DNA from: Gammaproteobacteria bacterium | GTDB lineage: Bacteria; Pseudomonadota; Gammaproteobacteria; UBA4575 | Length of the DNA: 64,000 nt | Direction: 5' to 3' | Assembly (NCBI GenBank): GCA_965243395.1 | Contig: CBDEUS010000001.1 | Location: forward strand, 1-64,000 | Shown: positions 3,001 to 61,395 of the stretch, piece by piece | How the letters are laid out: every line of letters starts with the position of its first letter | Position numbering within the stretch: the first letter of the stretch is position 1 | The notes under the pieces: model-generated | Seen by the model: only the letters and a program-made list of their open reading frames with translations | Databases searched by the model: none | Told to the model about the DNA's origin: nothing | Position numbers and translations under genes: made by a program

Positions 3001-6000
3001 TGAGACTTTAGTGATCACCGCGACGGTGAACGCGAGTGGACCGTATGACAACATCGCGCAAGTCAGTGCCAGTGACCAAGCCGATCCGGACAGTACGCCG
3101 AACAACAACGTTCCTGCAGAAGATGATCAAGACAATGCACTGACCACACCGGTGGCGAGTGCGGACTTAAGTTTAACGAAGGTGGTGGACAACGCGACGC
3201 CGAGTGTGGGTGCGAACGTGAACTTCACGGTCACCGTGACCAACAACGGTCCCAGTGGTGCGACCAATGTGGCGGTGTTGGATCAGTTACCGGCGGGTTA
3301 CACCTATGTGAGTGATACACCAAGTGTTGGAACGTATAACAGTGGCACCGGCGTGTGGACGGTGGGCGCGTTAGCGAATGCGGCGAGTGAGACTTTAGTG
3401 ATCACCGCGACGGTGAACGCGAGTGGACCGTATGACAACATCGCGCAAGTCAGTGCCAGTGACCAAGCCGATCCGGACAGTACGCCGAACAACAACGTTC
3501 CTGCAGAAGATGATCAAGACAATGCACTGACCACACCGGTGGCGAGTGCGGACTTAAGTTTAACGAAGGTGGTGGACAACGCGACGCCGAGTGTGGGTGC
3601 GAACGTGAACTTCACGGTCACCGTGACCAACAACGGTCCCAGTGGTGCGACCAATGTGGCGGTGTTGGATCAGTTACCGGCGGGTTACACCTATGTGAGT
3701 GATACACCAAGTGTTGGAACGTATAACAGTGGCACCGGCGTGTGGACGGTGGGCGCGTTAGCGAATGCGGCGAGTGAGACTTTAGTGATCACCGCGACGG
3801 TGAACGCGAGTGGACCGTATGACAACATCGCGCAAGTCAGTGCCAGTGACCAAGCCGATCCGGACAGTACGCCGAACAACAACGTTCCTGCAGAAGATGA
3901 TCAAGACAATGCACTGACCACACCGGTGGCGAGTGCGGACTTAAGTTTAACGAAGGTGGTGGACAACGCGACGCCGAGTGTGGGTGCGAACGTGAACTTC
4001 ACGGTCACCGTGACCAACAACGGTCCCAGTGGTGCGACCAATGTGGCGGTGTTGGATCAGTTACCGGCGGGTTACACCTATGTGAGTGATACACCAAGTG
4101 TTGGAACGTATAACAGTGGCACCGGCGTGTGGACGGTGGGCGCGTTAGCGAATGCGGCGAGTGAGACTTTAGTGATCACCGCGACGGTGAACGCGAGTGG
4201 ACCGTATGACAACATCGCGCAAGTCAGTGCCAGTGACCAAGCCGATCCGGACAGTACGCCGAACAACAACGTTCCTGCAGAAGATGATCAAGACAATGCA
4301 CTGACCACACCGGTGGCGAGTGCGGACTTAAGTTTAACGAAGGTGGTGGACAACGCGACGCCGAGTGTGGGTGCGAACGTGAACTTCACGGTCACCGTGA
4401 CCAACAACGGTCCCAGTGGTGCGACCAATGTGGCGGTGTTGGATCAGTTACCGGCGGGTTACACCTATGTGAGTGATACACCAAGTGTTGGAACGTATAA
4501 CAGTGGCACCGGCGTGTGGACGGTGGGCGCGTTAGCGAATGCGGCGAGTGAGACTTTAGTGATCACCGCGACGGTGAACGCGAGTGGACCGTATGACAAC
4601 ATCGCGCAAGTCAGTGCCAGTGACCAAGCCGATCCGGACAGTACGCCGAACAACAACGTTCCTGCAGAAGATGATCAAGACAATGCACTGACCACACCGG
4701 TGGCGAGTGCGGACTTAAGTTTAACGAAGGTGGTGGACAACGCGACGCCGAGTGTGGGTGCGAACGTGAACTTCACGGTCACCGTGACCAACAACGGTCC
4801 CAGTGGTGCGACCAATGTGGCGGTGTTGGATCAGTTACCGGCGGGTTACACCTATGTGAGTGATACACCAAGTGTTGGAACGTATAACAGTGGCACCGGC
4901 GTGTGGACGGTGGGCGCGTTAGCGAATGCGGCGAGTGAGACTTTAGTGATCACCGCGACGGTGAACGCGAGTGGACCGTATGACAACATCGCGCAAGTCA
5001 GTGCCAGTGACCAAGCCGATCCGGACAGTACGCCGAACAACAACGTTCCTGCAGAAGATGATCAAGACAATGCACTGACCACACCGGTGGCGAGTGCGGA
5101 CTTAAGTTTAACGAAGGTGGTGGACAACGCGACGCCGAGTGTGGGTGCGAACGTGAACTTCACGGTCACCGTGACCAACAACGGTCCCAGTGGTGCGACC
5201 AATGTGGCGGTGTTGGATCAGTTACCGGCGGGTTACACCTATGTGAGTGATACACCAAGTGTTGGAACGTATAACAGTGGCACCGGCGTGTGGACGGTGG
5301 GCGCGTTAGCGAATGCGGCGAGTGAGACTTTAGTGATCACCGCGACGGTGAACGCGAGTGGACCGTATGACAACATCGCGCAAGTCAGTGCCAGTGACCA
5401 AGCCGATCCGGACAGTACGCCGAACAACAACGTTCCTGCAGAAGATGATCAAGACAATGCACTGACCACACCGGTGGCGAGTGCGGACTTAAGTTTAACG
5501 AAGGTGGTGGACAACGCGACGCCGAGTGTGGGTGCGAACGTGAACTTCACGGTCACCGTGACCAACAACGGTCCCAGTGGTGCGACCAATGTGGCGGTGT
5601 TGGATCAGTTACCGGCGGGTTACACCTATGTGAGTGATACACCAAGTGTTGGAACGTATAACAGTGGCACCGGCGTGTGGACGGTGGGCGCGTTAGCGAA
5701 TGCGGCGAGTGAGACTTTAGTGATCACCGCGACGGTGAACGCGAGTGGACCGTATGACAACATCGCGCAAGTCAGTGCCAGTGACCAAGCCGATCCGGAC
5801 AGTACGCCGAACAACAACGTTCCTGCAGAAGATGATCAAGACAATGCACTGACCACACCGGTGGCGAGTGCGGACTTAAGTTTAACGAAGGTGGTGGACA
5901 ACGCGACGCCGAGTGTGGGTGCGAACGTGAACTTCACGGTCACCGTGACCAACAACGGTCCCAGTGGTGCGACCAATGTGGCGGTGTTGGATCAGTTACC

Positions 6001-9000
6001 GGCGGGTTACACCTATGTGAGTGATACACCAAGTGTTGGAACGTATAACAGTGGCACCGGCGTGTGGACGGTGGGCGCGTTAGCGAATGCGGCGAGTGAG
6101 ACTTTAGTGATCACCGCGACGGTGAACGCGAGTGGACCGTATGACAACATCGCGCAAGTCAGTGCCAGTGACCAAGCCGATCCGGACAGTACGCCGAACA
6201 ACAACGTTCCTGCAGAAGATGATCAAGACAATGCACTGACCACACCGGTGGCGAGTGCGGACTTAAGTTTAACGAAGGTGGTGGACAACGCGACGCCGAG
6301 TGTGGGTGCGAACGTGAACTTCACGGTCACCGTGACCAACAACGGTCCCAGTGGTGCGACCAATGTGGCGGTGTTGGATCAGTTACCGGCGGGTTACACC
6401 TATGTGAGTGATACACCAAGTGTTGGAACGTATAACAGTGGCACCGGCGTGTGGACGGTGGGCGCGTTAGCGAATGCGGCGAGTGAGACTTTAGTGATCA
6501 CCGCGACGGTGAACGCGAGTGGACCGTATGACAACATCGCGCAAGTCAGTGCCAGTGACCAAGCCGATCCGGACAGTACGCCGAACAACAACGTTCCTGC
6601 AGAAGATGATCAAGACAATGCACTGACCACACCGGTGGCGAGTGCGGACTTAAGTTTAACGAAGGTGGTGGACAACGCGACGCCGAGTGTGGGTGCGAAC
6701 GTGAACTTCACGGTCACCGTGACCAACAACGGTCCCAGTGGTGCGACCAATGTGGCGGTGTTGGATCAGTTACCGGCGGGTTACACCTATGTGAGTGATA
6801 CACCAAGTGTTGGAACGTATAACAGTGGCACCGGCGTGTGGACGGTGGGCGCGTTAGCGAATGCGGCGAGTGAGACTTTAGTGATCACCGCGACGGTGAA
6901 CGCGAGTGGACCGTATGACAACATCGCGCAAGTCAGTGCCAGTGACCAAGCCGATCCGGACAGTACGCCGAACAACAACGTTCCTGCAGAAGATGATCAA
7001 GACAATGCACTGACCACACCGGTGGCGAGTGCGGACTTAAGTTTAACGAAGGTGGTGGACAACGCGACGCCGAGTGTGGGTGCGAACGTGAACTTCACGG
7101 TCACCGTGACCAACAACGGTCCCAGTGGTGCGACCAATGTGGCGGTGTTGGATCAGTTACCGGCGGGTTACACCTATGTGAGTGATACACCAAGTGTTGG
7201 AACGTATAACAGTGGCACCGGCGTGTGGACGGTGGGCGCGTTAGCGAATGCGGCGAGTGAGACTTTAGTGATCACCGCGACGGTGAACGCGAGTGGACCG
7301 TATGACAACATCGCGCAAGTCAGTGCCAGTGACCAAGCCGATCCGGACAGTACGCCGAACAACAACGTTCCTGCAGAAGATGATCAAGACAATGCACTGA
7401 CCACACCGGTGGCGAGTGCGGACTTAAGTTTAACGAAGGTGGTGGACAACGCGACGCCGAGTGTGGGTGCGAACGTGAACTTCACGGTCACCGTGACCAA
7501 CAACGGTCCCAGTGGTGCGACCAATGTGGCGGTGTTGGATCAGTTACCGGCGGGTTACACCTATGTGAGTGATACACCAAGTGTTGGAACGTATAACAGT
7601 GGCACCGGCGTGTGGACGGTGGGCGCGTTAGCGAATGCGGCGAGTGAGACTTTAGTGATCACCGCGACGGTGAACGCGAGTGGACCGTATGACAACATCG
7701 CGCAAGTCAGTGCCAGTGACCAAGCCGATCCGGACAGTACGCCGAACAACAACGTTCCTGCAGAAGATGATCAAGACAATGCACTGACCACACCGGTGGC
7801 GAGTGCGGACTTAAGTTTAACGAAGGTGGTGGACAACGCGACGCCGAGTGTGGGTGCGAACGTGAACTTCACGGTCACCGTGACCAACAACGGTCCCAGT
7901 GGTGCGACCAATGTGGCGGTGTTGGATCAGTTACCGGCGGGTTACACCTATGTGAGTGATACACCAAGTGTTGGAACGTATAACAGTGGCACCGGCGTGT
8001 GGACGGTGGGCGCGTTAGCGAATGCGGCGAGTGAGACTTTAGTGATCACCGCGACGGTGAACGCGAGTGGACCGTATGACAACATCGCGCAAGTCAGTGC
8101 CAGTGACCAAGCCGATCCGGACAGTACGCCGAACAACAACGTTCCTGCAGAAGATGATCAAGACAATGCACTGACCACACCGGTGGCGAGTGCGGACTTA
8201 AGTTTAACGAAGGTGGTGGACAACGCGACGCCGAGTGTGGGTGCGAACGTGAACTTCACGGTCACCGTGACCAACAACGGTCCCAGTGGTGCGACCAATG
8301 TGGCGGTGTTGGATCAGTTACCGGCGGGTTACACCTATGTGAGTGATACACCAAGTGTTGGAACGTATAACAGTGGCACCGGCGTGTGGACGGTGGGCGC
8401 GTTAGCGAATGCGGCGAGTGAGACTTTAGTGATCACCGCGACGGTGAACGCGAGTGGACCGTATGACAACATCGCGCAAGTCAGTGCCAGTGACCAAGCC
8501 GATCCGGACAGTACGCCGAACAACAACGTTCCTGCAGAAGATGATCAAGACAATGCACTGACCACACCGGTGGCGAGTGCGGACTTAAGTTTAACGAAGG
8601 TGGTGGACAACGCGACGCCGAGTGTGGGTGCGAACGTGAACTTCACGGTCACCGTGACCAACAACGGTCCCAGTGGTGCGACCAATGTGGCGGTGTTGGA
8701 TCAGTTACCGGCGGGTTACACCTATGTGAGTGATACACCAAGTGTTGGAACGTATAACAGTGGCACCGGCGTGTGGACGGTGGGCGCGTTAGCGAATGCG
8801 GCGAGTGAGACTTTAGTGATCACCGCGACGGTGAACGCGAGTGGACCGTATGACAACATCGCGCAAGTCAGTGCCAGTGACCAAGCCGATCCGGACAGTA
8901 CGCCGAACAACAACGTTCCTGCAGAAGATGATCAAGACAATGCACTGACCACACCGGTGGCGAGTGCGGACTTAAGTTTAACGAAGGTGGTGGACAACGC

Positions 9001-9348
9001 GACGCCGAGTGTGGGTGCGAACGTGAACTTCACGGTCACCGTGACCAACAACGGTCCCAGTGGTGCGACCAATGTGGCGGTGTTGGATCAGTTACCGGCG
9101 GGTTACACCTATGTGAGTGATACACCAAGTGTTGGAACGTATAACAGTGGCACCGGCGTGTGGACGGTGGGCGCGTTAGCGAATGCGGCGAGTGAGACTT
9201 TAGTGATCACCGCGACGGTGAACGCGAGTGGACCGTATGACAACATCGCGCAAGTCAGTGCCAGTGACCAAGCCGATCCGGACAGTACGCCGAACAACAA
9301 CGTTCCTGCAGAAGATGATCAAGACAATGCACTGACCACACCGGTGGC
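1..9348 (+). repeat. Tandem array of 387-bp (129-codon) repeats: 24 full apparently identical copies plus a partial copy at the window start
   Basis: Period of 387 shown by identical antisense ORFs at 208, 595, 982...9109. Units start at 56+387n and the last ends at 9343, with homology continuing to 9348. Confidence 0.98.
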
Positions 9349-26814: not shown

Positions 26815-27204
<390 letters not shown>

Positions 27205-27244: not shown

Positions 27245-28567
27245 ATGAGTTTATTCAAACAAACATTAGGTAAAGGTTTTATAACGACTAAATGGGCATG
27301 GTCACTTTGCTTACTGCTAATTGTAGTCATGCCTGGAGTTGCACTTGCTGAGGATGTGCTTGATACAGGAGACACATCATGGCTACTCACATCTACAGCG
27401 CTAGTTTTATTTATGACCATACCAGGCTTGTCACTTTTTTATGCAGGTTTGGTGCGTAGTAAAAATGTTCTTTCAGTCTTAATGCAGTGTTTCACCATTA
27501 CATGTTTAGCATCACTTGTTTGGTTAGTGTTTGGATACAGTCTTGCATTTGGTGAAGGTAATAGTTTGGTTGGGGATTTTTCCAATTTATTTTTAAAAGA
27601 AGTTACACGCGATGCAGTAAATGGCACGATTCCTGAGAGTGTATTTGTAATGTTTCAGATGACTTTTGCCATTATTACACCTGCGCTAGTTGTAGGTGGG
27701 TTTGCAGAACGCATGAAATTTTCATCCATGATGTGGTTTTCCTTTTTATGGCTAGTAATCGTTTATTTCCCGGTGTGTCATTGGGTATGGGGCGGTGGCT
27801 GGTTGGCAGAGAAAGGTGTGCTGGATTTTGCTGGCGGGTTAGTTGTCCACTTAACCGCAGGTGCAGGTGCGATTGTTGCCGCAATAGTATTAGGAACACG
27901 CAAAGGGTTTCCTCGTACTGCCATGCCGCCACATAATTTATCAATGTCTGTAACTGGTGCTGGCATGTTATGGGTTGGATGGTTTGGGTTTAATGCCGGA
28001 AGTGCGGTAGCTGCCAGTGGAGATGCTGGTATGGCCATGTTGGTTACTCATATTAGTGCAGCAACAGCATCATTAGTTTGGATGTTTGCTGAATGGATTA
28101 AATTTGGAAAGCCCAGTGTGTTAGGTATTGTGACAGGTATGGTTGCCGGTCTTGGCACGATAACACCGGCTTCAGGTTTCGTAGGTCCAATAGGTGCGCT
28201 TATTATTGGTGCATCGGCTGGTCTTGTTTGCTTCGCTGCAACAAACTTCTTAAAACGTGTACTCAAGATTGATGATTCATTAGATGTTTTTCCTGTGCAC
28301 GGTGTAGGAGGAATATTAGGAACTATTCTCGCAGGAGTATTTATTGCAGAACAGTTTGGCGGAGCTGGCCTTGCTGAAGGCATGACCATCGGATCTCAAG
28401 TGGGTGTGCAAGTTTTAGGTGTAGTAGCTGTTCTTGTTTGGACCGTTGTTGCGACTTTTGTAATTTTACAAGTTGTTAAGTTACTTGTTGGTTTGCGCGT
28501 CGATGAACAACAAGAGACTGAAGGGCTGGACATCACACAGCACGAAGAGACCGGATACAATATGTAA
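27245..28567 (+). CDS. amtB: Ammonium transporter
   Basis: FQMTFAIIT, DFAGGLVVH, WFGFNAGS, DDSLDVFPVHG motifs. Confidence 0.98.
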   Translation: MSLFKQTLGKGFITTKWAWSLCLLLIVVMPGVALAEDVLDTGDTSWLLTSTALVLFMTIPGLSLFYAGLVRSKNVLSVLMQCFTITCLASLVWLVFGYSLAFGEGNSLVGDFSNLFLKEVTRDAVNGTIPESVFVMFQMTFAIITPALVVGGFAERMKFSSMMWFSFLWLVIVYFPVCHWVWGGGWLAEKGVLDFAGGLVVHLTAGAGAIVAAIVLGTRKGFPRTAMPPHNLSMSVTGAGMLWVGWFGFNAGSAVAASGDAGMAMLVTHISAATASLVWMFAEWIKFGKPSVLGIVTGMVAGLGTITPASGFVGPIGALIIGASAGLVCFAATNFLKRVLKIDDSLDVFPVHGVGGILGTILAGVFIAEQFGGAGLAEGMTIGSQVGVQVLGVVAVLVWTVVATFVILQVVKLLVGLRVDEQQETEGLDITQHEETGYNM

Positions 28568-28570
28568 GCA

Positions 28571-28622
28571 TAGGGATATGCGAATATGAGACGCATCATG
28601 GATGATGCGCTCAAATTAGAGT
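28571..28622 (+). repeat. Array end motif L1 (~50 bp), inverted relative to 30455-30505 and 47026-47053
   Basis: TAGGGATATGCGAATATGAGacgCATCATGGATGATGcgcTCAAATTAGAG matches the reverse complement of 30455-30505 (TATGGATATGCAAATATGAGtaaCAACAGGGATGTTGttTCAGATGAGAG). Confidence 0.75.
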
Positions 28623-28808
28623 CAGGAAGAAATAAAAAATGCAGGTTGGAAAAATTGAATTCAAAGTTTCATTATGTCCGCTAACGACCAATAGCGGACA
28701 TTCAACAAATTATCTTTAACGCTGAAAAAAGCCCATATGTCACTTATAAGGCTGTATAAATTTTCAACTCATACTATTCTTACAACAAATTTCTAGTTGG
28801 GGTGACAA

Positions 28809-29840
28809 ATGCACATCAGTAAAGTTGATTTAATGAAGGCTGCTGAAAAAGGTTTGTTGAGAAGCGAGCAAGTTGAACCCTTGTACGAATTTCTTGGCTC
28901 CATCGATAGTAAAAGCCCAAAATTTGATTTCACCCACGTCCTTTATTACCTAGGTGGTTTAATAGCTATTGGTGCCTTAACTCTTTTCATGAATCTAGGT
29001 TGGGAAGAGTTTGGTGGATGGGGAATATTTTTTATATCTTTGCTATATGCAGGTATTGGATTTAAGTTTACAAATTATTTCCGTGACAAAGATCTGCATA
29101 TACCTGCAGGAATATGTGCTGCATTTATAGTTGCTTTGACACCACTTGCTATATATGGATTTCAGCAGGGTATGGGATGGTGGCCTGAAAATACTCCATA
29201 TAGAGAATATCATCGTTACATTAAGTTTTTATGGATCTACATGGAGCTTGGTGCACTTGCCGTCGGGGCAATAATTGTTTGGAAGTATCGTTATCCATTT
29301 TTACTCATGCCTATTGCTGCAACTCTTTGGTATATGTCCATGGATATTGCAGAGATTATTACTAGCGACATCGTACATTTTGAAGAACGGGCTAAAATTA
29401 CAATGGGATTTGGGCTTGCAATGACATTATTTGCATTGCTCGTAGATATTCGGTCCAGAAAATCATTAGATTATGCATTTTGGCTTTATTTATTTGGAGT
29501 AATGGCATTTTGGGGAGGGTTAACCTCTCAACATTCGGATAGTGAGCTCGCTAAGTTTTTTTATTTCTGTATCAACTTGGTTCTAATAGGACTTGGTGTA
29601 ATTTTAGTTAGAAAAGTTTTTGTAGTATTTGGCGCATTGGGATGCGCATTTTATCTTGGACATTTAGCAAATGAAGTGTTTAAAGATAGTTGGTTATTTC
29701 CCATTGCACTGACTGTTATAGGAATTACGGTTATTTATTTGGGTGTGCTATGGCAAAAAAATGAAAAGAGACTTACAGATAATCTTAGGGGTTACTTACC
29801 AGCTGCTATCCAAGAGCTTCTAGAAGGAAAACGCATTTAA
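28809..29840 (+). CDS. Multi-pass membrane protein (DUF2157-like), cassette gene
   Basis: About 10 hydrophobic segments; N-terminal 'AAEKGLLRSEQVEPL...YYLGGLIAIGA' pattern. Confidence 0.75.
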   Translation: MHISKVDLMKAAEKGLLRSEQVEPLYEFLGSIDSKSPKFDFTHVLYYLGGLIAIGALTLFMNLGWEEFGGWGIFFISLLYAGIGFKFTNYFRDKDLHIPAGICAAFIVALTPLAIYGFQQGMGWWPENTPYREYHRYIKFLWIYMELGALAVGAIIVWKYRYPFLLMPIAATLWYMSMDIAEIITSDIVHFEERAKITMGFGLAMTLFALLVDIRSRKSLDYAFWLYLFGVMAFWGGLTSQHSDSELAKFFYFCINLVLIGLGVILVRKVFVVFGALGCAFYLGHLANEVFKDSWLFPIALTVIGITVIYLGVLWQKNEKRLTDNLRGYLPAAIQELLEGKRI

Positions 29841-29918
29841 CAATATGTTTTAAATGACTGCTTACGACCCAAAGCGGACATTTCCACAATCATAGATTTC
29901 ATTCTTTAAAATCTCATC

Positions 29919-30416
29919 ATGGCTGTTTTTATACACCTATTTGACGAACGAAATGCAAGCTCTATTCGCAAGAATGGAATCAAAATTTCAAAAAACTCGA
30001 ACAAAGAAATTAAAGGTGTATTTGCATATCCACAAACAGAAAATTTTGTTGTAAATCATCAGTGGATGCGGGAATTACGACGGCGTGCAGGACAAAATAT
30101 TTTGGCTGCTCGATTTAGGATTTCCGATAATACTGAAGTATTGGTAGGAAAATATAATGAAGAATCAATAGTTACTTCGGCTTCTAATGCAATTGGAATT
30201 GTCCGACAACATATTGATCCTATGGGATTAGAAGTAATAGTTACAAGGCCAATTAAGCCGCGAGAAATTATATCAATTTACAAACCACCTAAAGTAAGTG
30301 GATGGCGATATTATCCAAATGCTAAAGGCGAAAAACCTTGTGGTTGTCCTTATTGTCAGCGCGGTGAGCCATATAGTAAAAAACTGAGAATCAAATATGA
30401 GAAAGATTTTGAATGA
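29919..30416 (+). CDS. Hypothetical protein with C-terminal CxCxxC motif, cassette gene
   Basis: 165-aa ORF containing PCGCPYC; its TGA stop lies inside the 28-bp site at 30413. Confidence 0.8.
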   Translation: MAVFIHLFDERNASSIRKNGIKISKNSNKEIKGVFAYPQTENFVVNHQWMRELRRRAGQNILAARFRISDNTEVLVGKYNEESIVTSASNAIGIVRQHIDPMGLEVIVTRPIKPREIISIYKPPKVSGWRYYPNAKGEKPCGCPYCQRGEPYSKKLRIKYEKDFE

Positions 30417-30454
30417 CCGCTATTGGCCGAAAGCGGGCATTTATAAAGCTCGTA

Positions 30455-30505
30455 GCTCTCATCTGAAACAACATCCCTGTTGTTACTCATATTTGCATAT
30501 CCATA
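30455..30505 (-). repeat. Array end motif R1 (inverted copy of L1)
   Basis: GCTCTCATCTGAAACAACATCCCTGTTGTTACTCATATTTGCATATCCATA. Confidence 0.75.
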
Positions 30506-30609
30506 TGATCACTACCGACCCATAGCCGCCCTTCGTGAACTAAATCACACATTTTTAAATTGTGCAGGGATCTTAGCTACTAAACTGATAGTATCGAGCA
30601 CTTCTATAA

Positions 30610-31149
30610 ATGTATGTTCAATATATGCTTTTCCCACCCGTTCCAGAGAATGAGTCAATTCGCTTGCAAGCACTGCACGAGCTAAATCTTCTTGATACTC
30701 AACCGGATGAAAGAATTGACATCATTACAAAGTTTGCGTGTTATTTTCTAAATGCACCTATTTGTCTAGTTTCCCTCGTCGATGAAAATCGCCAATGGTT
30801 TAAATCTTGTGAAGGATTAAACGTTAAGGAAACTCCACGCTATATGTCATTTTGTGCCCATGCAATTTGTCATACCTCAACTCTTAATTCAGATTCACGA
30901 ATTTTTGAAGTATGTGACACATATATTGATAGTCGATTTATAGATAACCCCTTAGTTACAAAATCTCCTGGGATTCGATATTACATTGGTTATGTGTTGC
31001 AATCTGAATCGAAAATGAATTTAGGTACTTTTTGTATCATCGATACAGTACCTAGAAAATTTTCTGAAAGTGAAAAAGACTTACTAAAGGCACTAGGAGT
31101 TATGGTAGAAAATTTATTAATTAAGAATTCACATTTTCCTCATAATTAA
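30610..31149 (+). CDS. Stand-alone GAF domain protein, cassette gene
   Basis: ENESIRLQALHELNLLDT...SLVDENRQWFKS...SFCAHAI...DSRFIDNPLV...GTFCIIDTVPR is a typical GAF domain; no output domain. Confidence 0.88.
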   Translation: MYVQYMLFPPVPENESIRLQALHELNLLDTQPDERIDIITKFACYFLNAPICLVSLVDENRQWFKSCEGLNVKETPRYMSFCAHAICHTSTLNSDSRIFEVCDTYIDSRFIDNPLVTKSPGIRYYIGYVLQSESKMNLGTFCIIDTVPRKFSESEKDLLKALGVMVENLLIKNSHFPHN

Positions 31150-31179
31150 ACATAGTAGCTCACGTTCGAAAGCAAATAT

Positions 31180-31857
31180 TTATCTTAATAATTTAACTAT
31201 AAAATTTACGATTGGCGAATCACTTTTTATAGCTTCATTATTTGCAACTGCAAAAATTGGCACATTCAACAAGCTTTGTAAATCCTCTTGGTTGTTCATC
31301 GCTTTATCATGAGGTGCATTTCTATTATTTAAGACAATTGCGTTAAGTGTTAAACCTCTTTGCTGAATTGCTTCCACTGTTAATAATATATGGTTAATGC
31401 ATCCTAGCTGATCGTTTGCGACAAGTAATACAGGGAGTCGTAATGTTTCTGCAAGATCTGCATTTAAGCCATTTTCACAAAGCGGCGAATAAAAACCTCC
31501 GGCACCTTCTACTACAAGAAAATTTTCTTCATTTACGTTAGCAAGGCAAGCTTGTTTAGTTTCTTGAACACTAATGGGCTTGTTCACAAGGCGTGCAGCA
31601 CGTTGTGGTGAAATCGCCGGCTCAAAACGAAAAGGACAAATTTCTGTTAGCGGATATTTTTTCTGAATCGCTTCATAGTATTTATTTGCATCATCAGGAT
31701 GTAATGATCCATCTACACACTCACAACCCGATTCAATGGGCTTGCGTGGCACGACATCGAGTTCCAGATCATGCAATCGCGCAACAATTTGCGCGCCAAT
31801 GTAGGTTTTACCCACGTCGGTATCAGTGCCGGTAATAAATAATCCTTTGTTTATCAC
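31180..31857 (-). CDS. bioD: Dethiobiotin synthase
   Basis: FITGTDTDVGKT, KPIESG, VEGAGG, LGCINH motifs. Confidence 0.97.
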   Translation of the reverse strand: MINKGLFITGTDTDVGKTYIGAQIVARLHDLELDVVPRKPIESGCECVDGSLHPDDANKYYEAIQKKYPLTEICPFRFEPAISPQRAARLVNKPISVQETKQACLANVNEENFLVVEGAGGFYSPLCENGLNADLAETLRLPVLLVANDQLGCINHILLTVEAIQQRGLTLNAIVLNNRNAPHDKAMNNQEDLQSLLNVPIFAVANNEAIKSDSPIVNFIVKLLR

Positions 31858-41205: not shown

Positions 41206-41440
41206 GATTTCCATCAGGCGTGATGCATCCGATTCAAGGTAAGTGAGCTAATATCAATAACAGCTTAGGAATTTCAATTCAGAGCTTCAAAATAACTGCT
41301 TATAGCCCAAAGCAGATATTAAATAATTACTAAACGTAATCGCCGACTAATAAAATAGTCTAATCTTCGTTCTACATACGTGCATTTAATGTAATGAATT
41401 GGAGTTTAGTTTACTAGACTCAATGTTTACAATTAGACAC

Positions 41441-42718
41441 ATGTCAAATAAACATCATGTTGTTGTTATTGGAGCTGGGTTTGGCGGAATACAAACTGTC
41501 CATCATCTCAAGCACAAAAATGTCCGCATCACACTTATTGATCAGCATAACTATCATCTTTTCCAGCCCTTACTATACCAAGTTGCAACCGCATTATTGG
41601 CACCATCAGAGATCGCCTGGCCAATACGTAATTTGGTACGTAAGAGAAAGGATATTACTACTTTATTAGCAGTAGTAGCGGATGTAGATAAAGATAACAA
41701 AAAAGTTATTCTAGAAAACGGCGAATCAATTACATACGACACTCTTGTAATAGCAACAGGAGCACGTCACGCTTATTTTGGACATGACGAATGGTCAAAA
41801 TATGCCCCGGGCTTAAAAGTTTTAGAGGAAGCTACATCTATAAGACACAAAATTTTGATCGCATTTGAACGAGCTGAATTTGAAACAGATAAAATGAAAC
41901 AGGATGCGCTTTTAACTTTTGTAATAGTTGGTGGTGGCCCAACAGGTGTAGAACTTGCTGGCACAATTGCCGAGCTTGCGCACCATACGCTATCTAACGA
42001 ATTTCGCCATTTTGATTCTAAAACCACTCGTGTAGTGCTTGTAGAAGCTTCTTCCCGGATTTTGTCTTCATTTTCGGAAAGTCTGTCGAACTATGCAAAG
42101 AAAGCTCTAGAGAATCTCGGGGTAGAAGTTCAACTTGGGCAGCCTGTATCAACCTGTGATGAGGATGGCGTGACTATAGGTTCTGAAAGGCTAAACTCTA
42201 AAACAATTCTTTGGGCAGCAGGGGTTCAAGCATCACCCGCGGCAAATTGGCTTAATGTGCAAGCTGATCATGCAAATCGTGTCATCGTAGAGCCAGATTT
42301 AACGATCCCGAACAATTCAGAAATATTTGTTATTGGAGACACAGCATCAATTAAGGATAAAAATGGCCATCAAATTCCTGGCATTGCACCTGCCGCTAAA
42401 CAACAAGGGCACTATGTAGCCAAACAAATCAAAGCACGTCTTCAAGGTAAAAAATTAACAAACCCATTTCAATATAAAAGCTTTGGGCAGATGGCAACGA
42501 TTGGTAAACGTGCAGCAGTTTTTGAAATCGGTAGACTGAAATTTCATGGCTGGCCTGCTTGGTGGTTATGGGGAATAACACATATTTACTTTTTAATCGG
42601 GGTGCGTAATAGGATGTCTGTTGCATTAAGCTGGTTATGGATTTACTTCAAAGGTGATAGAGGTGCGCGATTGATTACAAACTTTGATACAACAACAACT
42701 GAGAAATTTGAAGAATAG
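41441..42718 (+). CDS. ndh: Type II NADH dehydrogenase-like FAD oxidoreductase, cassette gene
   Basis: VVIGAGFGG, HLFQPLLYQVAT, VGGGPTGVELAG, VIGD, APAAKQQG motifs; ATG at 41441 preferred over TTG at 41399. Confidence 0.9.
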   Translation: MSNKHHVVVIGAGFGGIQTVHHLKHKNVRITLIDQHNYHLFQPLLYQVATALLAPSEIAWPIRNLVRKRKDITTLLAVVADVDKDNKKVILENGESITYDTLVIATGARHAYFGHDEWSKYAPGLKVLEEATSIRHKILIAFERAEFETDKMKQDALLTFVIVGGGPTGVELAGTIAELAHHTLSNEFRHFDSKTTRVVLVEASSRILSSFSESLSNYAKKALENLGVEVQLGQPVSTCDEDGVTIGSERLNSKTILWAAGVQASPAANWLNVQADHANRVIVEPDLTIPNNSEIFVIGDTASIKDKNGHQIPGIAPAAKQQGHYVAKQIKARLQGKKLTNPFQYKSFGQMATIGKRAAVFEIGRLKFHGWPAWWLWGITHIYFLIGVRNRMSVALSWLWIYFKGDRGARLITNFDTTTTEKFEE

Positions 42719-42799
42719 CAGTAACGTGTTGTTGGAACTATTTAATACGAAATGCTTTAAGATGTCTGCTCACGACCCAAAGCGGACATTTTGGTCATC

Positions 42800-43150
42800 A
42801 TGAAATTAATCGTAAATTGCATACTGCATATTAGTTTTATGATTGTATTTGGTTGTTCACAAGAACCTATAATAAATAATTCAAAATTTGCTGAAAGCTT
42901 AATAGAAGAACATTTTTCTATAGGTACGCACGTAAATGAGATAAATAAATTTTGTGACAAAAATGGATATGCAATATATGAAGCTACTAAATGTGAAAAT
43001 AATCAAGAAAGTTGTTCCCATGGAGCACTTGTAACTGTGTCGACACCAAATAATAGCTGGTGGTATGGAAATGGGCTTATTCAAATATATTTAACATTTG
43101 ATGATAATAAAAAATTAAATCATATTAAGCACGAAATATATTATGACTAA
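42800..43150 (+). CDS. Hypothetical lipoprotein, cassette gene
   Basis: MKLIV...IVFGC lipobox-like signal; ATG 10 bp after a 28-bp site; TAA lies within the next site. Confidence 0.7.
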   Translation: MKLIVNCILHISFMIVFGCSQEPIINNSKFAESLIEEHFSIGTHVNEINKFCDKNGYAIYEATKCENNQESCSHGALVTVSTPNNSWWYGNGLIQIYLTFDDNKKLNHIKHEIYYD

Positions 43151-43173
43151 CGACCCAAATCGGACTTAGCTTT

Positions 43174-43470
43174 ATGACGAATCAGCTATCAAACGAAGAA
43201 GAAAAGGAGCTTTCATCCCTTTATCTTCAAGCAATTATTATTGCTGACAAATTTGCTAATGTAGATTCAAATGAGTCGGAAGCGATTATTGGAATGAATA
43301 ATATTCTAACCAGTGTAAAACCTATAGTGGAAGCGTCTTATCAGAAGAAAAATTTAAAAGGCATGAGGATGATTATAAGTGACTTCAAAGAGATGTTTTC
43401 TGGGTGCTCAGATGAAGATCGGCAAGCAACAAACAAAATATTTAAACAAAATAATTTAGCTGAGTGGTAA
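43174..43470 (+). CDS. Hypothetical protein, cassette gene
   Basis: 98-aa ORF filling the interval between sites 43143 and 43480. Confidence 0.7.
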   Translation: MTNQLSNEEEKELSSLYLQAIIIADKFANVDSNESEAIIGMNNILTSVKPIVEASYQKKNLKGMRMIISDFKEMFSGCSDEDRQATNKIFKQNNLAEW

Positions 43471-43526
43471 TTCGCAAGTATGACCGCTAATGACAGAAAG
43501 TAGAATTTAGTAAAAAAGGGATAATT

Positions 43527-43955
43527 ATGAAACGTTTAATATTCGCTGTATTATTATTTAATGTTGTTTCAATTACTTTAGCTGCACCTCCTAAACCCGC
43601 TGAAACTAAATATCTAAAAACAGAAGTTGGTGGATTCGCAATAGAGAAAGGAAAAGCACTTTATTCTCTACAATATAAAATTAAAAAGCCCTTTGATAAA
43701 AAAATTTCGGCACAGATTCAGTACGAAAATCCTGATCCCAATGGAGGAAGTTTGATTGATGAATTTATAATTAATCCAGGGCAAGTATCAATTTCTGTCG
43801 AATCAGTAGTGTTAAGTTGTATAAAAAACAATAAAAAATATAAAGTTGTACTAAAACTATTCGACGACGGTAAGCAAATTACCAAACATAAAGATAAGGT
43901 ACAGTTTGCTTTACCAGATGAGATAATTCAGCAGTTAAAAATTACATTATGCTAA
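43527..43955 (+). CDS. Secreted hypothetical protein, cassette gene
   Basis: MKRLIFAVLLFNVVSITLA signal peptide; RBS-like AAGGG upstream. Confidence 0.8.
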   Translation: MKRLIFAVLLFNVVSITLAAPPKPAETKYLKTEVGGFAIEKGKALYSLQYKIKKPFDKKISAQIQYENPDPNGGSLIDEFIINPGQVSISVESVVLSCIKNNKKYKVVLKLFDDGKQITKHKDKVQFALPDEIIQQLKITLC

Positions 43956-44019
43956 ATGCGTAAATATCAGCTTTCGAACAAAAGCGGACATTTAAAATTA
44001 ATGTTCTAATATCATCAAA

Positions 44020-44508
44020 ATGCGTTATTTTCTCTTAGTTCTGACTATATTTTCCAACCTATGTCAAAGTAATCAAGAAGAAGTCTACGTTCAATATAAC
44101 GAATATTTTAACCATGTTAATAGTTCAACAAAAACTGAACCCATTAGTATTTATTTTACAAAAAAAGAAATTTTAAAAAGCAAACAAGCCATCAAAACAA
44201 TGAGAGAGCATGGTTTTAGCGATGACTACATAAAGGATAGTATGTGGAAATATCTCGCAAGAGGCGCACGATTCAAAGAAATATCAGATCATGCAGAGGA
44301 TAATTATTTAGATGATAGTAAATGTTTGGTAATACGAGGTTTATACCATAATAATAAATGGGTAAGTGCAATTCACAAATACGATTACGAAGATGGTTCA
44401 TTTAAGATTGATAGTATTTTTTTAGATTATGATGATGGTGGTGATGAACTATTTATTCACGCTAATCTAGATTTATGTGATTTATTACATAGTGAAACTG
44501 CTACATAA
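44020..44508 (+). CDS. Secreted hypothetical protein, cassette gene
   Basis: Signal-like N-terminus; TAA immediately adjacent to the site at 44509. Confidence 0.75.
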   Translation: MRYFLLVLTIFSNLCQSNQEEVYVQYNEYFNHVNSSTKTEPISIYFTKKEILKSKQAIKTMREHGFSDDYIKDSMWKYLARGARFKEISDHAEDNYLDDSKCLVIRGLYHNNKWVSAIHKYDYEDGSFKIDSIFLDYDDGGDELFIHANLDLCDLLHSETAT

Positions 44509-44546
44509 ATGACCGCTATTGGCCGAAAGCGGATATAAAAATTTGT

Positions 44547-45014
44547 ATGAAAAGACAATCACCATTAGTTTGTTGGATACTTTCAGTAATTACCAGCGGC
44601 ATTTATTCATTATATTGGCTTTATAATCGCAGTGATGTAATTAATGAAATGTCGGGTAATACTAATTTTCAAGGAAAGAAAATGGTTAAGAAAATATTGT
44701 TTTCATTTGTAATTGTGTCTGTATTAATGTGTTTAGCGCTATATTTTGATCCTAATCAAGTCAGTAATAAAGAAGCAGATGATGATTTATTTAGCATATT
44801 TTTATGGCTAACATTTTTCGCCGCTATGTTTTATACATGGTCGATTATTCAAGCATTTTACAAAGCTGGATATGCTATCCAAACATTAGAAAAGAAACAG
44901 GACATCGAAAACCAATGCTCACCTTATTTATCATGGGTATTATTATTTTTTTTGTACTTTAATATTCCTTATTTGCAATCTCATTTAAATTGCTTGGGTG
45001 GTCCACAGGAATGA
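44547..45014 (+). CDS. DUF4234-like membrane protein, cassette gene
   Basis: KRQSPLVCWILSVITSGIYSLYWLY...YLQSHLN pattern; TGA lies inside site 45011. Confidence 0.78.
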   Translation: MKRQSPLVCWILSVITSGIYSLYWLYNRSDVINEMSGNTNFQGKKMVKKILFSFVIVSVLMCLALYFDPNQVSNKEADDDLFSIFLWLTFFAAMFYTWSIIQAFYKAGYAIQTLEKKQDIENQCSPYLSWVLLFFLYFNIPYLQSHLNCLGGPQE

Positions 45015-45071
45015 CCGCTATTGGCCGGAAGCAGACATATTTTACTTATAATGGTTTAAATTAGTTTTGAA

Positions 45072-45536
45072 ATGAGTACATATATACATCATCTAACTGC
45101 GAATGATATGACAATCATGAGAGCTATGCTCATAACATTTGGTGAAGTATTCAATGACATGGATACCTATACTGAAAAACAGCCTAGTTCAAACTACTTG
45201 GAAAAATTACTCAATAAGGATTCATTTATCGCATTGGCAGCTTTAAAGAATAATAATGTCGTTGGCGCGATGGTAGCTTATGAGCTTGTAAAATTTGAGC
45301 AAGAACGCAGTGAATTCTACATTTATGATCTAGCAGTAGATAAATCTCATCGGCGTGAGGGTATTGCAACTGGCTTGATAGAAGAGCTAAAAAATATTGC
45401 TGCAAAACGAGGAGCTTACGTAATTTTTGTTCAGGCTGACAAAGGTATTGAGGATGAACCAGCAATTGCACTCTATAATAAGCTTGGAAAAACTTGTGAG
45501 GATGTATTCCACTTTGATATACAAGTTAATGATTAG
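45072..45536 (+). CDS. aac(3)-I: AAC(3)-I family aminoglycoside N-acetyltransferase (GNAT), cassette gene
   Basis: FGEVFND..TY...QP...YL..LL....[26 protein letters not shown]...[32 protein letters not shown]...EDV.HFDI: the motif series of AAC(3)-I (aacC1-type) enzymes. Confidence 0.9.
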
Positions 45537-45596
45537 AATGTCCGGTATCGATCCAAAGCGGACTAATTATAGAAAACTGACAATCCTATAACATTT

Positions 45597-46097
45597 ATGA
45601 GAATAATATTTTTTTTAATACTAATCATTTTAATATGTTCGTGGTTTTATTATGGGCATTGGATCTTTAACAATAAAAAACTATCTTGGAAAATTATTTG
45701 GGTATTTGTAACAATTCTACCGTTTATTAGTTTTTATTATTTAACTAACCCAAGTGTTAACTATTACAAAAATCAATTTACACTTATATCAGGGTTTGAG
45801 TTTCCTTCAAATGGTATATTTATAGACTATTCTTCATCGTTTCCAGATTTACAAGGCGATTATAGCGTTTGTGGTTTGTTCAAAGCTCCAACTGATTTCA
45901 TAAAAATACTAAACTCTACAATTCCTACAATACAAAATGGTCAATTCAAGCCACGAATGTTTTGCAAATTGGATGAGAAATCAAAATATTACTACACAAA
46001 TGTTTTAGATCTTGAAAATGAGGAACTAGGAGTTACAGGAATACTTGGTATCAGCACCGAAACAAATGTTGTTCATTTTCAATTTTTTAGAAATTAA
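45597..46097 (+). CDS. Hypothetical membrane protein, cassette gene
   Basis: Two N-terminal TM segments; flanked by sites 45538 and 46101. Confidence 0.7.
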   Translation: MRIIFFLILIILICSWFYYGHWIFNNKKLSWKIIWVFVTILPFISFYYLTNPSVNYYKNQFTLISGFEFPSNGIFIDYSSSFPDLQGDYSVCGLFKAPTDFIKILNSTIPTIQNGQFKPRMFCKLDEKSKYYYTNVLDLENEELGVTGILGISTETNVVHFQFFRN

Positions 46098-46166
46098 ATA
46101 AAATCCGCTATTGGTTGAAAAATATGCAAAAATGACAATTAGAACTTATATAAAAATATTTTAATC

Positions 46167-46607
46167 ATGAAAGATATAAAAAAAGTTTTTCGTAATCTTG
46201 AAAGAAAATTGAACAAATCAAGTTGGTTTGATAATGGTTGGGAGATTTACAACCGTGGTGTTTATCTGCAACTCTACAAGGATAGCTGGCACAATCATAA
46301 TCAGGGTGGAATTCATTTTGAAACTTTTATTGAAGCGAGAGAAGTTAAACAAAAGGCATTCCCAATCTGTATGCATGCGGAGGAAGATTGCCCCTCACAA
46401 CAGACTTTCATTCAAGAGTTTATGGCATTGGAAGGTGATCGAATAAAGGGTTGGAAAGGTTATCAAATTGGCGAAGGCTACAGCATCTGCAAAAGAACAC
46501 TTCCTCTTAATTTTAAGAATCTGGAGCAACGGTTATTAGAAGAGTTCAGCAGACTTCGACAACTGGAAAAAAGCGTGGAAAAGGCACTGAGTCTAGTTCA
46601 AATTTAG
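46167..46607 (+). CDS. Hypothetical protein, cassette gene
   Basis: 146-aa ORF containing LQLYKDSWHN...GIHFETFI. Confidence 0.78.
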   Translation: MKDIKKVFRNLERKLNKSSWFDNGWEIYNRGVYLQLYKDSWHNHNQGGIHFETFIEAREVKQKAFPICMHAEEDCPSQQTFIQEFMALEGDRIKGWKGYQIGEGYSICKRTLPLNFKNLEQRLLEEFSRLRQLEKSVEKALSLVQI

Positions 46608-46676
46608 GCTGGCTTACACGGTGCAAACATTAATGGCTGAAAGCAGTCATCTAATTAATGTAATAAGGTATTAAAA

Positions 46677-46970
46677 GTGATTAGAAAACTATTCCTGTCT
46701 ATTATATTTATACCTGTCATTTCATCGGCGTGGATGGGGGGTGGAGGCGGTAAAAGTTATGAGGATGGCATGTTTTGGGGTGCTGATCTGGATCGAAACG
46801 AACGTTTAGATCGAGAGGAAGCTAAGGCTGTTTATAATTTAGCAGAAGATGAAATTTTTACACGCTATGATAAAAATGGGAACGGAACAATAAATCTACC
46901 TGAATTTATGGAATTTTTTCAACATTCTCCATGGACGAATAAAATTAATCATCCTAAAGCTAAAGAGTAA
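46677..46970 (+). CDS. Secreted EF-hand calcium-binding protein, cassette gene
   Basis: Signal peptide; EF-hand loops DLDRNERLDREE and DKNGNGTINLPE. Confidence 0.8.
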   Translation: MIRKLFLSIIFIPVISSAWMGGGGGKSYEDGMFWGADLDRNERLDREEAKAVYNLAEDEIFTRYDKNGNGTINLPEFMEFFQHSPWTNKINHPKAKE

Positions 46971-47025
46971 CTTAAAATGATGTGATTTGAGTCAGTGCAG
47001 CACTTGAATTATAAAAGATTATTAT

Positions 47026-47053
47026 TGTTGTTACTCATATTCACATATCCTTA
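47026..47053 (-). repeat. Array end motif R2
   Basis: TGTTGTTACTCATATTCACATATCCTTA matches 30478-30505 TGTTGTTACTCATATTTGCATATCCATA at 25 of 28 positions. Confidence 0.8.
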
Positions 47054-60375: not shown

Positions 60376-61395
60376 ATGAATATACAACAAGCAATTAATA
60401 CCGTAATTGAAGGGAATAATTTAAATCGCGATGACATGACAACAGTAATGCGAAGTGTGATGTCAGGTGAAGCTACGCCTTCGCAAGTTGCAGGTTTGCT
60501 TGTGGCCTTGCGTATGAAAGGCGAAGTGGTGGACGAGATTTCTGCCGCCGCATCTGTGATGCGTGAACTATCTACCAAGGTAAATGTTGCCTCTGAAAAC
60601 TTAGTGGATACTTGCGGCACAGGTGGAGATGCTAAAGGTACGTTTAATGTTTCAACTACTGCTGCATTTGTTGTGGCGGCTGCCGGCGCTAGGGTGGCTA
60701 AGCATGGTAATCGTTCGGTATCGAGTAAAAGTGGAAGTGCTGATCTGCTAGAAAAAGCAGGGGTGAATTTACAACTCACACCAGAACAGGTGGCAAAATG
60801 TATAGAAGAGTTGGGTATAGGCTTTTTATTTGCGCCAGCCCACCACAGTGCTATGAAACATGCTATTGGTCCACGTAAAGAACTTGGCATAAGGACAATA
60901 TTTAATTTACTCGGTCCTTTGACAAATCCTGCCAATGCACCACACCAAGTATTGGGTGTGTTTAGTAGCGAATGGGTTGAGCCATTGGCAAAAGTCTTAC
61001 AGTCGCTTGGAAGTAAACATGTATTAGTTGTACATGCAGATGATGGTTTAGACGAAATTAGTATTAACAGTGATACTCAAGTAGCTGAGTTAATAGATGG
61101 AGAAGTTAAGAATTATTCAATTTCACCGGAACAATTTGGTATGCAAAAAAGAAGTCTTGAAGAAATTGTCGCTAGCGATGTTTCCGAGAGCCTACAAATT
61201 GTAAATAATGTTTTTGAAAATCAAGCAGGCGCTGCATTAGATATTGTAAGACTTAATGCTGGTGCTGCAATTTATGCAAGTGATAAAGCTGCAAGTTTAG
61301 AAGAGGGTATAGTGCAAGCTACTAACGTTATAGAAAATGGTGCTGCAAAAAATAAATTTCAACAGTACATAGAATTTACAAAAAGTATGAGTTAA
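60376..61395 (+). CDS. trpD: Anthranilate phosphoribosyltransferase
   Basis: [33 protein letters not shown] motifs. Confidence 0.98.

Follow-up and report, generated by a model that had tools for sequence, protein, structure and literature searches.

Is the DNA between amtB and bioD in a gammaproteobacterium of the lineage UBA4575 a settled part of the chromosome, or is it an array of mobile gene cassettes? This 2.6-kb interval holds three open reading frames (ORFs) in the same orientation with copies of a 28-bp palindrome between them, and it lies in the 64,000-nt stretch that we analysed (the window; positions 1 to 64,000 of the forward strand of contig CBDEUS010000001.1, GenBank assembly GCA_965243395.1). 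The window is the start of contig C1 of the source genome (G000; 2.58 Mb, 38% G+C, contigs C1 and C2). Relatives are numbered G001 etc., loci fetched from them carry L-numbers, and all ORFs are mechanical calls. An earlier interpretation made from the letters of the window (the sequence-only reading) had proposed a system that acts in trans at several chromosomal loci rather than at one integron platform. With slightly better than even confidence, we conclude that the amtB-bioD insert is one array of a lineage-wide, multi-locus cassette system that is independent of the integron integrase IntI, that the arrays in this genome are orphans, and that a tyrosine recombinase found in relatives, here called Int-X, is the best candidate for its enzyme.

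The 28-bp site is two-fold symmetric, with 9-bp arms (ATGNCCGCT / AGCGGNCAT) around a 10-bp centre. The centre occurs in two discrete types, A (AACGACCCAA) and B (ATTGGCCGAA), which are the best-conserved columns, and sites were scored with a weight matrix trained on those of G000. The array begins behind amtB (27245..28567, + strand; ammonium transporter, PF00909, E 7.8e-122), the left core flank, which adjoins bioD in relatives. An inverted copy of a two-hairpin element, T, abuts the amtB stop codon (28562..28618, - strand; folding z -4.7), and 44 nt of it form a 77% inverted repeat with 30469-30512. A 45-nt spacer (28629..28673, +) with the motif GGTTGGAA at 28644-28651, the usual predecessor of A-type sites, then leads to the first site (28674..28701, +; score 39.9), which is A-type with the hybrid centre CGACCAATAG and is, as had been recognised from the letters, a perfect 10-bp inverted repeat. 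Cassette ORF 1 (28809..29840, +), a membrane protein of 343 aa, is followed by a second A-type site (29854..29881, +; score 50.8), and cassette ORF 2 (29919..30416, +), a 165-aa CxCxxC protein (C-G-C-P-Y-C read from the DNA) without a Pfam family, by a B-type site (30413..30440, +; score 50.5), bases 2-4 of which are the TGA stop of ORF 2. This site forms a B-T composite with a direct copy of T (30462..30514, +; hairpins 30467-30484 and 30495-30508). A degenerate A-like site (30505..30532, +; score 18.5, 4 mismatches) overlaps the end of T, and the cassette-like ORF 3 (30610..31149, +; 179 aa, GAF domain, PF01590 E 7e-10) comes last before the bioD-like gene (31180..31857, -; PF13500), the right core flank, which is convergent with amtB.

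The sequence-only reading had counted five sites around these genes, of which those at 28674, 29854 and 30413 and the weaker one at 30505 stand. The fifth (31152..31179, no strand assigned), although its place 2 nt past the GAF stop suits such a site, is a relic at best, since it scores below 3, has 7 mismatches in the 20 specified positions of the site pattern, is not significant alone and cannot be told from chance. The CxCxxC protein and the GAF gene are as it described them, while the DUF2157 likeness of ORF 1 is weak (E 0.0028, 17.8 bits, under the cut-off of 32.4). Homologues of ORF 2 number 86 in metagenomes and unrelated phyla, all unnamed or 'hypothetical', and a distant search of a plasmid collection with 28560-31180 returned GAF-domain noise only.

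The insert is not ancestral. Adjacency of amtB and bioD in relatives had been named beforehand as the mark of an empty site, and among the 13 relatives in which both genes were matched on one contig, ten have a distance of 104-326 bp between the matched parts. These relatives are related to each other, so here and below counts across them are not independent. The four that were read (G011, G005, G007 and G006) have only a bidirectional terminator hairpin between the two genes and no site, and G012, G008 and G001 have 1.4-1.6 kb of other content. All that lies there in G002 is a T in inverted orientation with the spacer and an A site that is interrupted. The closest relative, G012 (87%), shares its left end with G000; an Ada-like gene of 345 aa then takes the place of G000's cassettes, and B-T comes after it.

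The same site occurs at many other places in the genome. A search of the window for the pattern ATGNCCGCTNNNGNCCNANAGCGGNCAT, with up to 3 mismatches allowed, gave 7 matches against none in 100 shuffles, and at a threshold score of 12 the whole genome holds 126 sites against 2 in a block-shuffled genome. They form 28 clusters, 19 of them with at least two sites and the largest with 20, 17, 14 and 13, and no recombinase adjoins any of these arrays, which supports the multi-locus, in-trans interpretation. The statement that housekeeping genes are free of copies also holds in the window, where no position outside the two arrays reaches a score of 8 (best 4.6, at 60711). Within each cluster the polarity of the sites is nearly uniform, and it is tied to the genes: ORFs of at least 50 aa end between -40 and +12 nt of the site start at 73 of the 126 sites as oriented, against 14 of 126 when the sites are reversed. 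The TGA inside the site's ATGACC serves as the stop codon for 15 ORFs, and the median ORF length is 151 aa. The cargo includes glyoxalase, GNAT, nitroreductase, SnoaL, OsmC, SRPBCC, nuclease and methyltransferase genes as well as many ORFs that belong to no family, which is the usual content of chromosomal cassette arrays, and the flanks are ordinary core genes, e.g., rpoD-dnaG, hslUV and ubiE.

The second array of the window (41292..47053, +) consists of small ORFs in one orientation with sites at 41292, 42762, 43140, 43480, 43964, 44509, 45011 and 45538 and a weak one at 46623, and it ends in a copy of T (47026-47053) that abuts the stop codon of a convergent 409-aa gene. The strings shared by sites of the two arrays are exactly as had been read from the letters: the first 24 bp of sites 30413 and 44509 are identical and sites 29854 and 42762 have ACGACCCAAAGCGGACATTT in common. 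The flanks of this second array are kept in five relatives, with 11.8, 1.9, 1.0, 1.0 and 2.0 kb of different content between them; the locus has zero sites in G011 and G003, and in G012 it has none of G000's cassettes. Between sites 41292 and 42762 a 439-aa pyridine nucleotide-disulphide oxidoreductase of NDH-2 type (41399-42718), housekeeping-looking in itself, sits like a cassette, and homologues of this gene (70% identical) stand at other places in G003 and G011.

Whole cassettes have relocated between arrays in G012, G001 and G011. The DUF2157-like unit of the amtB-bioD array (28674-29882) is present at 83% identity in G001, where the match starts on the opening base of one site and ends on the closing base of the site after it, and its home there is orthologous to G000 C1:139-140k, where G000 holds a solitary T only. 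Likewise, the GNAT cassette of the 41-kb array (90% identity) and its 146-aa neighbour are found in a G012 array whose left flank is orthologous to C1:280.8-281.7k, and the 166-aa cassette is found at the locus orthologous to C2:659-661k. DNA homologues of the GAF ORF stand at other loci in at least 8 relatives with a small amtB-bioD gap. The question of whether one cassette can occur in different arrays is thus answered by comparing G001 and G012 with G000; within G000 no cassette is duplicated.

Palindromes beside genes might instead be regulatory or RNA elements (operators, terminators or mRNA stabilisers) that merely accompany accessory genes. They do lie between ORFs, and on the top strand the sites fold into hairpins at z -3.5 to -5.9. 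Yet they have no T-tract, none was called terminator-like, neither promoter-like nor terminator-like sequences were enriched and none fell at the sites, and a search of 27-48 kb against Rfam (E ≤ 1) found no family. This account would also leave the unit-wise relocation and the empty sites unexplained, and we give it next to no credence. Covariation between the arms is absent as well, since pairing reaches 83.1% where shuffles give 83.5%, and 386 of 500 shuffles equal or exceed it, which argues that the palindrome acts as two half-sites read as sequence and not as a hairpin kept by compensation. The two half-sites differ in conservation: the better-conserved arm is the right one in A sites and the left one in B sites, also among single sites. 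Summed over columns, the similarity of A to B is nearly equal in direct (18.48) and reverse-complement (18.22) alignment. Sites of one type can follow each other in runs (A A A, B B B).

Breaks in homology point to the centre of the site. On the amtB side the homology between G000 and G012 stops at 28689, the centre of site 28674, and in G012 and G002 a 45-nt hairpin element, with CGACC(G)…CGACC(C) on its two sides, splits the counterpart of this site. Another site of G012 is interrupted by a relative of this element of ~105 nt, flanked by TGGCTG…TGGTCG, and metagenome contigs that differ from the window at 5 of 380 nt (99% identity) have a 51-nt insertion exactly between 28689 and 28691. Duplication of a 5-6-bp centre would fit staggered cuts at the borders of arm and centre, i.e., a core of 11-6-11 like that of dif, and we infer that recombination takes place at the site centre. 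As an observation in their own right, these tiny hairpin elements, 45 to ~105 nt long with conserved ends, enter the exact centre in both orientations with a 5-6-bp duplication, and their presence varies among strains 99% identical to the window; insertions were located at L007 (G012) 3373-3445, L009 (G002) 3392-3470, L042 (G012) 2120-2250 and window 28689/28691.

The site is widespread in the family and also occurs outside it. With up to 2 mismatches allowed, the pattern was found in 32 of 56 family genomes (13 of 14 genus relatives, 8 of the 11 genera of the family), with up to ~160 matches per strand in some, whilst the reversed control pattern gave none in any of them. Among 300 other genomes sampled from the class, 14 had at least one match, and the control had at most one match, in 7 genomes. 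One of the 14 is G069, which belongs to another family and has 53% G+C: it has 45 matches in typical arrays with both A and B sites, and no Int-X. That A and B sites are alike in genomes of 38% and 53% G+C indicates that the site sequence has been kept against very different base composition.

Such numbers are also what one might expect of palindromes similar to repetitive extragenic palindromic (REP) sequences and the bacterial interspersed mosaic elements (BIMEs) built from them. On this account the sites were once spread by a REP-associated tyrosine transposase (RAYT) or something similar and now serve as portable homology, so that cassettes move by homologous recombination after DNA uptake. 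The sites are indeed palindromic, stand at gene 3' ends, come in two variants and form fixed-spacer composites (B-45 nt-A) reminiscent of BIMEs, and several copies are identical over 28 bp. Against this, the Y1 transposase (PF01797) has no match in G000 and is absent in 12 of the 13 site-bearing genus relatives; 8 of the 56 genomes of the family have it, and a single one of the 14 genus relatives, with no correlation to the number of sites. Moreover, the sites are clustered in variable arrays and not scattered among core genes, with none outside the arrays in the 64-kb window, the arms lack compensatory changes, the centre is both conserved and the break point, and the sequence is held constant across such unequal G+C contents. 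As a full explanation we regard this as unlikely, although homologous recombination through the sites as portable homology may be a contributor.

The sites also enter larger assemblies, of which three recur: B-45 nt-A (73 or 83 nt from start to start), B-T, and an inverted T with a spacer and an A site. The spacer of the first composite carries GGTTGGAA, a motif that 21 of 64 A sites have within the preceding 50 nt, compared with 2 of 62 B sites, and the B-T unit, ~105 bp long, is found again at many loci of relatives. Element T is a pair of short hairpins, with ATCCNT in the loops, that enclose CTCATATTCGCA. Its stems do show compensation: in 11 copies 15 double changes were counted where 6.0 ± 2.0 were expected, a value that 0 of 500 shuffles reached. 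Two copies of T, inverted relative to each other, bound the amtB-bioD array (28562-28618 and 30462-30514), the array at C2:997.7-999.6k is enclosed likewise, and ~11 more copies of T exist in G000 beyond the three of the window. On one strand the T loops read A-N-G-G-A-T, which resembles CsrA/RsmA-type GGA-loop binding sites, and this strand is the sense strand of the incoming core gene (amtB and the 409-aa gene), which raises a possible role in the 3' untranslated region (3'-UTR); T may be a 3'-UTR RNA element that replaces a lost terminator.

What enzyme could act on these sites? The tyrosine recombinases of G000 are XerC, XerD and three phage-type integrases only, and they score 131-135 on the IntI model TIGR02249, whose cut-off is 265. 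The phage-type integrases were rejected as the cognate enzyme, since among the relatives G002 alone has them, apart from weak matches in G035. No recombinase turned up in Pfam scans of 58, 33 and 36 array and flank ORFs, and G000 is without insertion sequences (IS), IS110-type enzymes, serine recombinases, rve, DDE_Tnp_1, Y1 enzymes and reverse transcriptase. Self-BLAST of the genome likewise found no IS-like multicopy DNA, its repeats being tuf, a desaturase and tandem-repeat genes.

The arrays could in principle be ordinary integron cassettes with unusually short attC sites in a strain that has lost IntI, i.e., classical clusters of attC sites lacking integron integrases (CALINs). Their architecture and cargo are integron-like, and true IntI (TIGR02249 above the cut-off) is present in 5 of 56 family genomes. 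The five IntI loci, however, hold no site at up to 5 mismatches, and the sole genus member with IntI, G014, has no sites and a different repeat after its cassettes. In that genome a classical integron was read at L022 7013-8572 and 8805-13428, with an IntI of 387 bits and a divergent array of three ORFs, each then followed by a AACAAGGCGCT...-type repeat. attC sites are imperfect inverted repeats of ~57-141 bp that fold as single-stranded DNA with two protein-binding boxes; the 28-bp site described here, with its 9-bp stem, is too short for such a two-box fold, and the arrays stand at 28 places. We therefore hold the classical explanation to be very improbable.

More can be said for the host pair XerC/XerD, which would recombine the sites without any dedicated enzyme, as has been proposed for the dif modules of Acinetobacter plasmids. 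These are the only tyrosine recombinases common to the site-bearing genomes examined and would account for conserved sites in genomes without Int-X; the 28 bp of the site allow an 11-6-11 division, a centre of 5-6 bp is duplicated around the inserts, and G000 has none of the transposition enzymes listed above. Both xer genes of G000 lie within ~3 kb of a mini-array, a proximity that could also be conserved synteny or chance. xerD (C1:426417-427334) is near a one-cassette mini-array at C1:422917-423495, xerC (C2:250961-251932) is near C2:247855-248502, and in G011 a B-T unit stands ~2.5 kb from xerC. The dif sequence of G000, ACTTCGCATAATATATATTATGTTAAAT, is nevertheless unlike the site, with 6/11, 0/6 and 4/11 positions alike (10/28 in all), and XerC/XerD are present where sites are absent, in G014 and 23 other family genomes. 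This dif (C1:959290-959317) is at the cumulative GC-skew maximum (~940 kb), with the skew minimum near C2:400k. On balance we consider it unlikely that XerC/XerD recombine the sites.

The reading we prefer, a cassette system with an enzyme of its own, gained a candidate when site-rich relatives were screened with PF00589 for weak-scoring recombinases near sites. Int-X is an uncharacterised protein of ~375 aa that exceeds the gathering score of PF00589 (38.8-54.5 bits against 27.1) and falls below the NCBIfam cut-offs (51 vs 220 bits for XerA, 41 vs 335 for XerC, 23 vs 265 for IntI). Its best match among solved structures is 4a8e, a XerC-like recombinase (E 1e-6). Three copies are 45-51% identical to each other, and the G040 copy is 62% identical to the first of two copies in G035 (int1). 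Four intact copies all keep the residues that align with the catalytic R, K, HxxR, H and Y, among them R220, H313, R316, H339 and Y349. Relatives of Int-X are few: a search of 5.8 billion proteins gave 14 at E ≤ 1e-10, none with a name more specific than 'tyrosine-type recombinase/integrase'; a profile search of 301 genomes across the class (E ≤ 1e-25) found none in the other 299, and no locus in the genome contigs was found for a more distant relative, P0100. The predicted structure (4-row alignment; mean predicted local distance difference test score 53.3) was too poor to use.

Int-X and the site are physically associated. In G003 a full site lies 7 nt past the Int-X stop codon, and a fragment of a second copy lies beyond that site. 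In G035, int1 and a co-oriented array point away from each other, with 176 nt between the int1 start codon and the array's first site, a layout that is integron-like. A partial site lies 18 nt past the int1 stop, and a second copy (int2), at the array's far end, is followed by a site 8 nt past its stop. G035 also has two identical copies of a different 375-aa phage-type integrase (L061 13478-14605 and L064 4976-6103), one of which adjoins the Int-X array; this duplication suggests another mobile element in the region. Of 12 Int-X matches, 4 have a strong site no more than 200 bp away, and 4 of 7 independent metagenome contigs with Int-X bear strong sites, two of them 26 and 41 nt past the stop codon. 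The gene occurs in 7 of 56 family genomes, in many as fragments with stop codons: the G005 copy is split near residue 177, and G015 has an additional decayed copy. Three of the four most site-rich genomes (G005, G035 and G003) have a full-length or nearly full-length Int-X. From these arrangements we infer that Int-X catalyses the recombination.

Several points weigh against this assignment and against site-specific recombination more generally. G000 has no Int-X or remnant of it, and Int-X is missing in 24 of the 32 site-bearing family genomes and in G069, in all of which the sites are still well conserved; this implies either that the enzyme is frequently re-supplied or that some other factor present in every genome is responsible, a role for which XerC/XerD would be the obvious rival even though dif is dissimilar. 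The distribution itself (7 of 32 site-bearing against 0 of 24 site-free family genomes) is weak statistics because the genomes are kin. The intact Int-X of G040 has no site within 1.5 kb, and the same is true of 8 of the 12 Int-X matches for sites scoring at least 12. Int-X could be mere cargo, as GAF cassettes also recur across genomes, and its N-terminus, which in Pfam finds insignificant AP2 matches only (E 0.065-0.49), may be an arm-binding domain, more phage-like than Xer-like. Duplication of cassettes between arrays of G000 was not found; the 73 ORFs gave a single pair, 28% identical. Replication slippage on the 5-6-bp repeats could yield the 51-nt polymorphism without an enzyme and could also delete inserts of this kind. 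No circular cassette, excision junction or excision product was seen, and the joints in reads at site borders have sides of 20-32 letters that come from the repeated sites themselves, not from excision.

Taking both sides together, we retain the cassette system with Int-X as its candidate enzyme and picture it as follows. A cassette would usually consist of a single small ORF with a 28-bp site that adjoins or contains its stop codon. Site-specific recombination at such sites would excise and insert cassettes whole, at many places on the chromosome, typically in the terminator region between convergent core genes. The site would be a core of tyrosine-recombinase geometry (11-6-11, like dif), cut at the borders of arm and centre. 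The putative enzyme would be Int-X, Xer-like, travelling in cassette position within the arrays of relatives and often pseudogenised there. Since G000 has no Int-X, the arrays of the window are orphan arrays, like attC clusters without an integrase.

If this is correct, a cassette system that has gone unrecognised organises some of the accessory genome throughout one family and in at least one more, with a very short site that is easy to track and a small, novel recombinase. This would bear on how cassettes originate and move without IntI, on how orphan arrays persist and on a compact pair of recombinase and site. Integron tools (IntI profiles and attC models) would miss these arrays completely. 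A full-text literature search with 16-17-nt pieces of the site gave no match, and in the entries listed by a search on the concept only integrons and Acinetobacter dif modules appeared, with nothing on a 28-bp site of this kind. Even if the assignment of Int-X fails, the empty sites and the relocations reveal a new class of gene-turnover hot spots.

Two further features of the window lie outside the arrays. Upstream of amtB is a glnK-like P-II gene (26866-27204; PF00543), and positions 1-9348 are filled by a perfect tandem repeat with a period of 387 bp (~24 copies). Contig C2 opens with an identical inverted block of 387-bp period, and a repeat of 318-bp period closes both C1 and C2; with such repeats at the contig ends, the assembly breaks inside giant repetitive genes and C1 and C2 are probably one chromosome.

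Among the closest known systems are integrons, the textbook case of gene capture through site-specific recombination. Integrons and CALINs have in common with the arrays described here the co-orientation, the small packed ORFs, an imperfect palindrome that touches or contains the stop codon, a similar cargo, the occurrence of cassettes in different arrays, a sporadic and often decayed integrase that leaves orphan arrays, and, in G035, a divergent recombinase gene adjoining the array. They differ in that the site here has 28 bp, half-sites that do not covary and two discrete centres, that there are dozens of loci per genome rather than one platform (attI, Pc), that IntI is absent, that the candidate recombinase is itself in cassette position and that arrays end in the two-hairpin element T. 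The system described here looks like a second route, independent of classical integrons, by which bacteria gather and shuffle genes. At somewhat below even confidence, we would go as far as a second kind of 'integron' in marine Gammaproteobacteria, in which the 28-bp site stands for attC and a cassette-borne Xer-like recombinase for IntI, arrays are seeded throughout the chromosome at terminators of convergent core genes, the incompatible centres A and B partition exchange, and the whole has spread across families of very different G+C with its site sequence unchanged.

For the enzyme, the simple Xer-type recombinases (XerA, XerC and XerD) are nearest, through the PF00589 catalytic domain and the best NCBIfam matches, although Int-X has ~80 extra N-terminal residues and scores far under their cut-offs. 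For the site, REP sequences and BIMEs with their RAYT are alike in being short extragenic palindromes at gene 3' ends with variants and fixed-spacer composites; they differ in that nearly all carriers here have no RAYT, the arrays are variable and units relocate from site to site. The dRS3 repeats, intergenic mosaic elements (NIME arrays) and minimal mobile elements of Neisseria also involve a short palindrome with a defined centre that bounds variable units between conserved genes and is a target for integration. The Neisseria units are mostly non-coding repeats, the enzyme linked to dRS3 is of a different family, and there is no rule of one ORF plus one site. Finally, in the dif modules (pdif) of Acinetobacter, 28-bp sites for XerC/XerD bound gene modules that are found in varied contexts (PMC6449649, PMC12907356, PMC7399989, PMC10132070). 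The modules resemble the present arrays in having no recombinase gene beside them and in sites that are targeted by small elements; the arrays of G000 and its relatives differ in that their sites are unlike the host dif, stand in chromosomal arrays with one polarity to the ORFs, bound small cassettes and form runs of the same type rather than alternating strictly.

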